From Candidatus Pacearchaeota archaeon (GTDB taxonomy: Archaea; Nanobdellota; Nanobdellia; Pacearchaeales; GW2011-AR1), in assembly GCA_018303825.1 (NCBI GenBank), contig JAGVXK010000007.1, forward strand, positions 823-64,822: 64,000 nt of DNA. The letters run 5' to 3'. Within the stretch, counting starts at the first letter, position 1. Each line of letters starts with the position of its first letter. Shown piece after piece: positions 1,273 to 54,333 of the stretch. The translations under genes were made by a program, and so were the position numbers. The notes below the pieces were generated by a model, which saw only the letters and a program-made list of their open reading frames with translations, was not told the DNA's origin and did no database searches.

Positions 1273-1785
1273 TCAAGGCTTTTGCCAGGAGACTTCGTAA
1301 TATGAGACATCAGATTCTTCATCTACAATAGCTATCAAGAGATTTTTGTTTGTTGAATGAGCAATTCTGTTTTTTGCGGCGAATTCATGCCAGTTTATTG
1401 AATCATGTTCTTTTGCAGTATAGAGAATCCATTTTGCATGAGCATTTCCCGGACGAGTGCCCTTGTCATAAACTCTGAATTCTGCCCCAAATTTTAGCGC
1501 CGTTTTGATAATATATCCTTTTTTTCTTAGATCTGAAAAGACTGAAAGCTTTGTTTCAGTTTTTTTGTCTATTTTTTTCAGCTTTTTTATTAATAATTCT
1601 TCATTGATTTGCTTTTTTCCGGAGAAAATCTGCATTTTTCCTTCTTGGACAAGAAAAAGCGCTTCGACTAATGCGTATTCTATTTTATTGTTCTTATTTT
1701 CTCCAAACGAGGATTTCTCACAGAGAGAAAATGCCTCCTCTGAAGTAGAGTATATTTTTGTTCCGGAGAACTTTGCCTGTATCAT
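1273..1785 (-). CDS. endA: tRNA-splicing endonuclease (short, ~170 aa form)
   Basis: C-terminal catalytic signature ...ALKFGAEFRVYDKG...HAKWIL... (conserved Tyr/His/Lys) and N-terminal YALVEALFLVQEG domain typical of archaeal EndA. Confidence 0.8.
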   Translation of the reverse strand: MIQAKFSGTKIYSTSEEAFSLCEKSSFGENKNNKIEYALVEALFLVQEGKMQIFSGKKQINEELLIKKLKKIDKKTETKLSVFSDLRKKGYIIKTALKFGAEFRVYDKGTRPGNAHAKWILYTAKEHDSINWHEFAAKNRIAHSTNKNLLIAIVDEESDVSYYEVSWQKP

Positions 1786-1877
1786 TAATAGCTAAACTCT
1801 CTAGCTTATTTAAAGATAATGTTTGAATGAGATGTCATCTTAAAATGTGATAAAACTTAGGATGCCGATGATAAACC

Positions 1878-1948
1878 ATGAAAGTTCGCTTAAGTTAATA
1901 TCATAAAATATTGACGATAAAATTAGCCATCACCCGTTTGCTTAACAG
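1878..1948 (+). repeat. Conserved ~70-nt intergenic element, copy 1 (second copy at 54185..54254)
   Basis: atgaaagttcgcttaagttaatatcataaaatattgacgataaaattagccatcacccgtttgcttaacag is ~90% identical to the stretch at 54185..54254. Both have an internal direct repeat GTTnGCTTAA at each end and a mini-ORF MKVRLS/N. Confidence 0.6.
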
Positions 1949-1994
1949 AAGATACAGGGTTAAGGTTTAAAAAACCACGAATATTAAGGGTGAG

Positions 1995-9896: not shown

Positions 9897-10017
9897 TTTA
9901 GATGTATTTGGGGTTTATAAGGTTTAAAAAGAAAAACGCTTTATAAACCTTTTTAAAGTAAAAGTTCATACTTATAAGTAGGAAAACGTTTATATAATTA
10001 GTATGACTAAATAAGTT

Positions 10018-10263
10018 ATGAGATTTGTAAGAGAAATAGGAGAGAAAGGGCAGGTAGTCATACCTAGAGATATCAGAGATTTACTTGGAGTTAGACCAAA
10101 ACAAAAAATTGTCTTTGAAGTAGAAAACGAGGAAGTCAAGATAAAACAGGAAGAGGATGCTGAAAAGTTTCTGAAGGAATTTTTTAGTCTGCCAAAATTA
10201 AAAAAACCACTTACTTTGAAAGATCTCAAGAAAATAGAGGATGAAAGTTATGATTTACCTTGA
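10018..10263 (+). CDS. vapB: AbrB/SpoVT-type antitoxin (VapB-like)
   Basis: MRFVREIGEKGQVVIPRDIRDLLGV swapped-hairpin motif; overlaps the downstream PIN gene. Confidence 0.7.
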   Translation: MRFVREIGEKGQVVIPRDIRDLLGVRPKQKIVFEVENEEVKIKQEEDAEKFLKEFFSLPKLKKPLTLKDLKKIEDESYDLP

Positions 10264-10648
10264 TTCAAATGTTTTTATTTACGCCGCTTTGAATATGAAG
10301 CCAGTAGCTGATAAATGTATAAAAATAATGAATGATATTGCTAATAAAAAAATAGAGGTATGCACTTCTATTTTAACGTGGGATGAATTTTTTTATTCAA
10401 TAAAAAGAAGCCTAGGGACGGATTACGCAGTATTGGAAAGTGAGAGATTATTAAGATTCTTAAACTTGACCTTTCTTGATGCAAATGTCAATACTATTTT
10501 ACTTGCCCAAAGGCTCAGTACAAGGTATAATATTGGTCCAAGAGATGCTATCCATGCAGCAACTGCAATTGCAAATAAATGTGGCTCAATAATATCAGAT
10601 GATTCTGATTTTGACAAAGTTAAAGAGTTGAAAAGGATTAAGCCTTGA
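10241..10648 (+). CDS. vapC: PIN-domain ribonuclease toxin (VapC-like)
   Basis: N-terminal YLDSNVFIYA, with Asp/Glu pattern and C-terminal IISDDSDF typical of PIN. Confidence 0.7.
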   Translation: MKVMIYLDSNVFIYAALNMKPVADKCIKIMNDIANKKIEVCTSILTWDEFFYSIKRSLGTDYAVLESERLLRFLNLTFLDANVNTILLAQRLSTRYNIGPRDAIHAATAIANKCGSIISDDSDFDKVKELKRIKP

Positions 10649-10681
10649 TTAAAATTTCTTCATTTTTTATCGAAGAAGAAT

Positions 10682-11086
10682 TTACATTCCGACAGGGGAT
10701 CTTGCAAATAGGTGGTTTTGGTTCTTAGAAACACGTTCATTGAATTTCTTTTCCCAGTCTTTTCCAAGGGTTCTCAATACATGCGGTATGTTTGCTTTTC
10801 TAACTTTTTCGAGTCCAATATGCATTCCTGGACTGAATCCAATATCAGTGTAAAAGGCGCGCAATTCAGCCGCTTCTGCCCAGGCAAATCCTGCTTCCAT
10901 CCCCCATTTTCTTTCTTCAGGATTGTTGACATCAAGAACTCCTCTTTGAGTGTATATAGCGTGAGATGCAATTGGCGCTTCTCCTCTTTGCAAACTGTCA
11001 TATAAACAAGCTCTTAGGTATTTTATATTTCTTTCATATTTACCATCAAGGGCAAAAGGAGATTCTACATAGACTCTTTTTATTTT
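10682..11086 (-). CDS. DUF1937-like protein (nucleoside 2-deoxyribosyltransferase-like fold), apparently lacking a canonical start codon
   Basis: The reading frame continues upstream of the annotated TTG as ...KIKRVYVESPFALDGKYERNIKYLRACLYDSLQRGEAPIASHAIYTQ... with no ATG/GTG/TTG in frame. The 5' boundary is uncertain. Confidence 0.4.
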   Translation of the reverse strand, partial: KIKRVYVESPFALDGKYERNIKYLRACLYDSLQRGEAPIASHAIYTQRGVLDVNNPEERKWGMEAGFAWAEAAELRAFYTDIGFSPGMHIGLEKVRKANIPHVLRTLGKDWEKKFNERVSKNQNHLFARSPVGM

Positions 11087-11166
11087 TTCCCTGGAAGAAG
11101 AGTGTTTTAAATGATTGTTGTAACGAAATATAGATAATAGGATAGATAATAGGGAATTACTTTTAT

Positions 11167-26462: not shown

Positions 26463-26495
26463 AAGGAATGAAGAGAGCAGAATGAAAGATAAAAG

Positions 26496-26514
26496 TAGGC
26501 TTTATGAAAGCCTA
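26496..26514 (+). promoter_or_regulatory. Perfect palindrome TAGGCTTTAtgAAAGCCTA upstream of wHTH gene (operator-like)
   Basis: Hairpin/dyad AGGCTTT-nn-AAAGCCT; near-identical copy at 32640..32658 and a half-site copy at 24911..24935. Confidence 0.55.
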
Positions 26515-26535
26515 GGAAGGTAAGGTTATAAAAAT

Positions 26536-32629: not shown

Positions 32630-32639
32630 GGCTTAATAA

Positions 32640-32658
32640 TAGGCTTTAGAAAAGCCTA
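32640..32658 (+). promoter_or_regulatory. Palindrome TAGGCTTTAgaAAAGCCTA, second full copy
   Basis: Identical arms to 26496..26514 and also followed by AGGAAAGTAAGGT. Confidence 0.5.
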
Positions 32659-32697
32659 GGAAAGTAAGGTCGCTAAAGCGAAAAGAAAAAGACCTTA

Positions 32698-54030: not shown

Positions 54031-54184
54031 ATCTCCTACTGGAAGTTGAGGTATTTAAATTTATATGAATTTATCGATACTTATTAATTATCAGTAATGA
54101 TAAATTTACTATTCTCTATTTGATGTATTTTTTAGGTTCTGTTAAATTAAAAGGTGATAAAACCCAAAATACCGACTACAAACT

Positions 54185-54254
54185 ATGAAAGTTCGCTTAA
54201 ATTAATATCATAAAGTACCGATGATAAAATTGGTCATCACTCGTTGGCTTAACA
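54185..54254 (+). repeat. Conserved ~70-nt intergenic element, copy 2
   Basis: atgaaagttcgcttaaattaatatcataaagtaccgatgataaaattggtcatcactcgttggcttaacaa; see copy 1 at 1878..1948. Confidence 0.6.
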
Positions 54255-54333
54255 AAACCATTTTTTATCTTCATTCAACACCGTATTAATTAGAGTATAA
54301 GAGAGCTATCATCATTAAGTTTATAACTTCTCT

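Follow-up and report, generated by a model that had tools for sequence, protein, structure and literature searches.

Archaeal MITEs such as the SM elements of Sulfolobus and the MITEs of Methanocaldococcus are small, AT-rich, intergenic sequences with inverted repeats and target duplications that are mobilized in trans. They belong to other transposon families and hosts than the element described here and reach tens of copies per genome, in contrast to the handful of copies that we saw. The IS6 family is characterized by 8-bp target repeats and by inverted repeats of 15 to 20 bp with GG tips and the motifs cTGTt and caaa (PMC7986276). Harmer and Hall found GG and G7 to be nearly universal in IS6 inverted repeats (PMC6807381); in the archaeal members, the repeats are longer and begin in most cases with GG or GA, 8-bp duplications predominate (PMC6807381, Table 5), and the repeats deviate from the bacterial consensus in having no G10 (PMC6807381). 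ISfinder holds only two IS6 MITEs (PMC7986276), MITEBth2 and MITEHarch3 (227 and 336 bp), which are non-autonomous, with IS6-type ends and no ORF.

The window analyzed here (i.e., the whole 64-kb stretch of Pacearchaeota DNA; GC content, 34%) belongs to a 74-kb metagenome contig (k141_453716 of ENA assembly ERZ4903072). On sequence grounds, two of its intergenic stretches are very probably copies of a 125-bp MITE, and an assignment of this MITE to the IS6 type specifically is likely. The element resembles MITEBth2 and MITEHarch3 in its organization and shares with them the GG tips, cTGTt, and the 8-bp target duplication (PMC7986276, PMC6807381); its only ORFs, of 6 codons (plus strand) and 9 codons (minus strand), are not conserved. 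It differs from them in its length of only 125 bp, its DPANN (Pacearchaeota) host, and the lack of caaa. The same inverted-repeat signature and 8-bp duplication are found in archaeal IS6-type ISs (ISH14, ISPfu1, ISMja1, and others), but these, like an IS on two other contigs that carry the element (L008 and L011), are 700 to 1200 bp long and encode a DDE transposase.

An earlier note on this DNA had described two same-strand copies of an element of ~70 nt, ~90% identical and bounded by an imperfect 10-bp direct repeat. Both copies were recovered by a repeat search of the window and by pairwise alignment; the pair formed by 1833 to 1950 and 54140 to 54257 (118 nt, 81% identity) is the sole long repeat family in the window. 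A pattern search located ATGAAAGTTCGCTTAA at exactly two positions (1878 and 54185), no chance matches are expected for the left-end 20-mer of the element, and neither pattern nor nhmmer profile revealed a third copy in the 64 kb. Over the ~70-nt core, identity is ~87% (9 mismatches, counted by eye on the alignment). The extent of the repeat had been drawn too short, as the likeness starts ~45 nt further left, opening at TTAAAA[T/G]GTGATAAAAC and closing at GCTTAACA. The 10-bp direct repeat (GTTCGCTTAA/GTT[T/G]GCTTAA) does exist in every full copy, though at an internal position, and the true boundaries are instead the terminal inverted repeats and 8-bp target duplications (Table 1).

Table 1. 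Positions in the window of the two copies of the putative MITE and of associated features.
Feature	Position	Strand	Remark
Degenerate putative MITE, copy 1	1828-1952	+	nhmmer match 1830-1950, E=1e-34
TGATAAAA box, copy 1	1848-1855	+	30 nt upstream of ATG 1878
Mini-ORF MKVRLS-stop, copy 1	1878-1898	+	Read from the sequence
aIF-1A's own TATA box TTTAAAAAA	1966-1974	+	29 nt upstream of ATG 1995; outside the element, marks its right limit
Left target-site duplication ATTTTTTA	54127-54134	+	Same 8-mer directly outside both inverted-repeat tips
Intact putative MITE, copy 2	54135-54259	+	125 bp; bounded by inverted repeats and target duplication
Left terminal inverted repeat GGTTCTGTTAAATTAAAAGGTGAT	54135-54158	+	Agrees with the reverse-complemented right end at 18 of the first 26 positions
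Archaeal promoter-like box TTAAAAGG-TGATAAAA	54147-54162	+	Predicted; within the left end of copy 2
Mini-ORF MKVRLN-stop, copy 2	54185-54205	+	Read from the sequence
Right terminal inverted repeat ATCACTCGTTGGCTTAACAAAACC	54236-54259	+	Reverse complement, GGTTTTGTTAAGCCAACGAGTGAT
Right target-site duplication ATTTTTTA	54260-54267	+	Perfect 8-bp match to the left one

Copy 2 is an intact, fairly recent insertion. Its terminal inverted repeats (GGTTCTGTTAA…/…TTAACAAAACC) match at 10 of 11 tip positions and again in GTGAT at positions 20 to 24; over the first 26 positions, 20 match in the intact copy of contig L008 (L008_1) and 16 in that of a Pacearchaeota MAG (L004), compared with 18 in copy 2. 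Copy 2 is 97.6% identical to L008_1 and 84% identical to the L004 copy. The earlier note had proposed looking for flanking target-site duplications, and perfect 8-bp duplications lie exactly outside the tips at three independent insertions (ATTTTTTA in the window, TGTTAGGA in L008, and ACTGATGC in L004); the 8-mers flanking the L011 copy form an imperfect duplication (6/8 by eye). Identical 8-mers 125 nt apart occur at 4 of 63,850 window positions (a rate of 6e-5), and three perfect duplications at the exact tips are therefore not due to chance. The neighbors of copy 2 are a 69-aa ORF on the minus strand and a gene for an MBL-fold hydrolase, the latter positioned downstream as previously described. 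A search for an empty site in the same population, made via the 69-aa neighbor, found none, as 16/16 contigs reaching that far carry the element.

Each of the two window copies occupies a spacer between divergent genes, upstream of a gene, as would be expected if a promoter or regulatory region had been duplicated between two related operons, which is one part of what the earlier note had named as refuting its proposals. However, the flanking genes are unrelated, the homologous copies have yet other neighbors, and the likeness stops exactly at the sharp inverted-repeat tips, beyond which the 8-bp duplications follow. This explanation therefore retains a negligible probability.

Copy 1 is an older, decaying insertion between the promoters of endA and aIF-1A. 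It shares 74% identity with copy 2 and has kept its right repeat (GCTTAACAGAAGA), while the left one has decayed to TGAGATGTCATC; the 8-mers that flank it differ (TGTTTGAA versus TACAGGGT), leaving no target duplication. We read it as the older relic because of this decay and the missing duplication. It is located between the divergent genes for the tRNA-splicing endonuclease (endA; 1273 to 1785, minus strand) and aIF-1A (1995 to 2354), the latter followed by the LeuRS gene, and the spacing to aIF-1A agrees with the earlier description (element end, ~1952; ATG, 1995). Related loci with conserved endA/aIF-1A/LeuRS synteny and ~70% aIF-1A identity were used as empty sites; their spacers are not alignable base for base with that of the window. 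The endA-aIF-1A spacer measures 209 nt in the window versus 88 nt in L013 (i.e., it is 121 nt longer), the orthologous spacers of L014 and L020 hold different sequence, and nhmmer detected no copy of the element in ~150 kb of the relatives' endA/aIF-1A loci. A box resembling the aIF-1A TATA box was read upstream of the aIF-1A ATG in L013, L014, and L020. Since aIF-1A thus has its own TATA box, with a similar box in relatives, the element is not the aIF-1A promoter.

Other features of these loci were also recorded. A second conserved intergenic motif, a short hairpin (AGGCTTT…AAAGCCT) followed by GGAAG[G/A]NAAGGT, is situated directly upstream of TATA-like boxes at window positions 26490 to 26526 and 32634 to 32670 (a pair with 86% identity) and at ~1950 to 1965, as well as in L020 (9853 to 9968) and L014 (3140 to 3225). 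Related GGAAGACAAGG units are present upstream of aIF-1A in the relatives, with tandem duplicates (~55 nt) in L020. This motif may bind a transcription factor or serve as a promoter-proximal element. The LeuRS proteins of L017 (6992 to 10498), L018, and L019 comprise 1150 to 1168 aa versus 831 aa in the window; the long forms contain NUDIX and weak abhydrolase matches (precomputed Pfam) and could reflect a domain insertion or a gene fusion.

Homologs were sought as exact matches to a 20- to 21-nt core pattern across public collections. True homologs were identified in the Pacearchaeota MAG L004 (GTDB; JACPXY010000070; GC content, 43%) and in the JGI metagenome contigs L008 and L011, and L008 carries a second copy that is far more divergent (L008_2), detected with the nhmmer profile at an E value of about 1e-7. 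Six other sequences (L005, L006, L007, L009, L010, and L012) were rejected as chance pattern matches with no likeness beyond the 21-mer. The invariant core AAAGTTCGCTTAA.TTAATATCATAA is the search pattern itself, and the profile-found L008_2 is without it; the invariance of this core therefore says nothing about selection. The six copies (two in the 64-kb window, two on the co-occurring contig L008, and one each in L004 and L011) lie in six different contexts, with flanking genes that include endA/aIF-1A, the 69-aa ORF/MBL hydrolase, rhomboid, pilin-like/CYTH, and tRNA/nadA-like genes. In L008_2, the left box and a block on the right (AATATCATAAAGTAYCGAYG-TAAAA…ATCAC) are retained and the middle differs, as would be expected if related parents had lost internal segments independently. 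Logan contigs from two sequencing runs (L027 and L029) end 29 nt inside the left end of the element, which is the behavior expected of a repeated element in an assembly with k=31.

On L008 (1120 to 2060, minus strand), a pilin-like gene of 161 aa lies between the intact copy and the divergent relic, which are in direct orientation. The product of this gene has a class III signal-peptide-like N-terminus, and the two-copy layout recalls the pseudo-compound transposons that are typical of IS6 elements.

The miniature mobile element is thus the proposal of the earlier note that the data bear out, through the inverted repeats, the three perfect 8-bp duplications, the unrelated contexts, and the absence from orthologous spacers. 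Points that we count against it include the low copy number, the state of copy 1 (no duplication and a decayed left repeat), and the absence of caaa.

The small RNA that had also been proposed would come from an independent non-coding gene driven by an archaeal promoter of its own, with an RNA that extends from ~1878/54185 to ~1950/54259 and acts in trans. Such a gene would agree with the BRE/TATA-like TTAAAAGG-TGATAAAA box, which in all six copies is conserved at promoter distance (30 nt) from where the best-conserved part begins, and with the 84% identity of the element between genomes that are 8 GC points apart and whose rhomboid proteins are 37% identical. However, Rfam searches on both loci gave no match to the element, either at the gathering threshold or at E<=10 (only a tRNA-Arg elsewhere and sub-threshold noise were returned), and single-sequence folds on both strands and at both lengths were no better than those of shuffled sequences (z of +0.65 to -1.97). 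Across the copies, where folding and covariance had been suggested as a check, there was no significant structure and no covariation; the RNAalifold covariation term was +0.52, and the one pair changed on both sides tracks two subfamilies. The inverted repeats vary without compensation (e.g., GGTTCC versus GGTTTT in L004), which would fit ends recognized as DNA sequence by a protein rather than as an RNA helix. Moreover, RNA genes are not characterized by target duplications or inverted repeats, and the core invariance is the search artifact described above. We therefore regard a trans-acting RNA gene as improbable; a small-RNA reading would nevertheless be compatible with a MITE that happens to be transcribed, and the two are not mutually exclusive.

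Several known RNA classes were considered and rejected. ARAGORN found no tRNA or split tRNA at the element. For 5S rRNA, raised by the ~122-nt size and terminal helix, RF00001 gave no match even at E<=10, and two divergent copies per genome with flanking target duplications speak against it. C/D box sRNAs were dismissed because neither strand has a CUGA (D box) where one is required, the GUGAU motifs differ between copies (GUGAUGA, GUGAUGG, and GUGACAA) relative to the C box RUGAUGA (both judged by eye), and snoRNA matches reached 12.8 to 22.2 bits, below the gathering cutoffs of 40 to 90. For H/ACA sRNAs, ACA is absent in L008_2, and the box-like motifs are not conserved.

According to a further proposal, the mini-ORF (MKVRLS/N) would be a leader peptide or part of an attenuator controlling the downstream gene. 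An ATG at the predicted transcription start would suit leaderless translation, and ATGAAAGTTCGCTTAA is kept in 4/5 full copies. In L004, however, ACAAAAGTT replaces the ATGAAAGTT of the others (ACAAAA versus ATGAAA), so that the start codon is lost and the mini-ORF is not conserved, and the L008_2 sequence at this position is unrelated. The downstream genes are unrelated to each other (aIF-1A, MBL hydrolase, rhomboid, CYTH, and pilin-like) or convergent (L011), and in the cases read (aIF-1A and the pilin-like and CYTH genes of L008) they have their own TATA boxes ~24 to 30 nt from the ATG. Neither single-sequence folding nor the alignment fold yielded a terminator or antiterminator structure. 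We give this proposal very little weight, and the mini-ORF is probably meaningless or a relic. The 9-codon minus-strand ORF (MANFIVNIL and similar) was discarded as a coding candidate because its substitutions have no third-position bias.

The TTAAAAGG-TGATAAAA box is kept in 6/6 copies, even in L008_2 with its divergent sequence. The start of TGATAAAA is 30 nt upstream of ATG 54185, a spacing like that of the aIF-1A TATA box (1966) to its ATG (1995), and the box resembles local promoters (e.g., AAGG-TTTAAAAAA of aIF-1A). IS6 elements are transcribed from a left-end promoter, and the box and ATG would thus most simply be a relic of the left-end promoter and transposase start codon of the parent IS. 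Alternatively, the MITE may carry a working archaeal promoter in this box that fires rightwards from the mini-ORF ATG and is partly retained for its regulatory effect, which on the sequence evidence we consider rather unlikely. More generally, TATA boxes lie ~24 to 30 nt upstream of ATGs (1966 to 1995 in the window; ~1893 to 1925 and ~1099 to 1135 in L008); this spacing leaves no room for a 5' UTR, suggesting that the mRNAs of the window organism are mostly leaderless.

The features that point to the IS6 family, i.e., GG tips, G7, CTGTT at positions 5 to 9, and 8-bp duplications, are all present in the element, whose signature ends are GGTTCTGTT (left) and GGTTTTGTT (right, reverse-complemented). 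The caaa motif is absent, with AAATT/AAGCC rather than GCAAA at positions 10 to 14. The MITE-bearing contigs L008 and L011 also carry an IS whose transposase belongs to PF13610 (DDE_Tnp_IS240; 50.5 bits), has the archaeal E--F---K-R motif, and is labeled "IS1/IS6 family" by NCBI; on L008/L030 it lies ~8 kb from the two MITE copies. L030, which carries the same transposase, is part of the assembly that also yielded the window contig (ERZ4903072), the transposase is found together with the window contig in two more JGI samples, and its accession (MBS3090831) is 120 apart from that of the window aIF-1A (MBS3090951). From these observations, the IS6-family transposase and the window very probably share one genome. 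The inverted repeats of this co-resident IS (TGAGCTGTTAAAT / TGAGCTGTTAAGT) have the CTGTTAA(A/G) core and the left/right asymmetry in common with the MITE, a likeness that is limited to ~9 to 12 nt and not significant on shuffling (68/500).

No autonomous IS with MITE-identical ends (GGTTCTGTTAAATTAAAAGG…TTAACAAAACC) was found. The 28-nt left end had 0 matches in viral contigs, MKVRL was absent from the N-termini of 120 IS6 transposase homologs, and no matching repeats occurred at the P0154, P0233, and P0138 loci. The case for the IS6 type is therefore built on the signature of the ends and the length of the duplication. A MITE of another transposon family with 8-bp duplications (e.g., IS1, ISL3, IS256, or ISH6) would be compatible with these negative searches, with the missing caaa, with the ambiguous NCBI label, and with a co-resident IS that is not demonstrably the parent. 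Against such a family, the GG tip, G7, and cTGTt at positions 5 to 9 jointly with the 8-bp duplication match IS6, PF13610 (IS240/IS6 type) is the sole transposase with inverted repeats in the MITE-bearing contigs, and the repeats of its IS carry the same CTGTTAA core in the same register. Membership in one of these other families is therefore unlikely, and an IS6-type MITE is the reading that we prefer.

For an IS6-type MITE, a DDE transposase supplied in trans would recognize the ~24-bp terminal inverted repeats and bind both ends, and an 8-bp staggered cut in the target would leave the 8-bp direct duplication. By analogy with what is known of IS6, the route would pass through cointegrates resolved by host recombination. 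The PF13610 transposase of the co-resident IS is a candidate helper for moving the element.

Additional transposase genes were observed during these searches. The IS6-family IS (L008, 9795 to 10950, equivalent to L030, ~9960 to 11110; L011, 3095 to 3873) encodes a transposase of 288 to 302 aa with an N-terminal zinc finger and contains a 66-aa ORF on the opposite strand. Its L008 copy has a recognizable right inverted repeat only, and its L011 copy is internally deleted (~780 bp) with both repeats, (T)GAGCTGTTAA, and a flanking direct repeat of ACTGAAACAT, or of 8 bp if the tip is TG. A gene for an IS200/IS605-type Y1 transposase (PF01797) lies ~1 kb from the IS6-type transposase on L030 (8524 to 8961), so that genes of mobile elements form a small cluster here. 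Among Pacearchaeota, IS6-type transposase homologs gave 696 matches at E<=1e-5, many of them in a fixed context without recognizable inverted repeats; those of P0138 (L034 to L036), L023, and L024 occur in one fixed, tightly packed gene context on many contigs. Some of these fixed-context homologs may be immobilized or domesticated.

The conserved non-coding stretch would thus be explained as ordinary selfish DNA, and its annotation as a riboswitch, small RNA, or leader peptide should be avoided. It would add an unusually small (125 bp) IS6-type MITE to the record for DPANN/Pacearchaeota, a lineage with poorly catalogued mobile elements. The contigs ending inside the element are a sign that it fragments short-read assemblies of this population, and it can be used to mark assembly breaks and variation between strains in the source metagenomes. 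Its possible role as a portable promoter beside essential translation genes is also flagged here. If that role were true, each insertion would place such a promoter, or else a small RNA or leaderless micro-transcript, in front of host genes (e.g., aIF-1A/LeuRS), and in the tiny genomes of DPANN archaea the element would not be purely selfish DNA.
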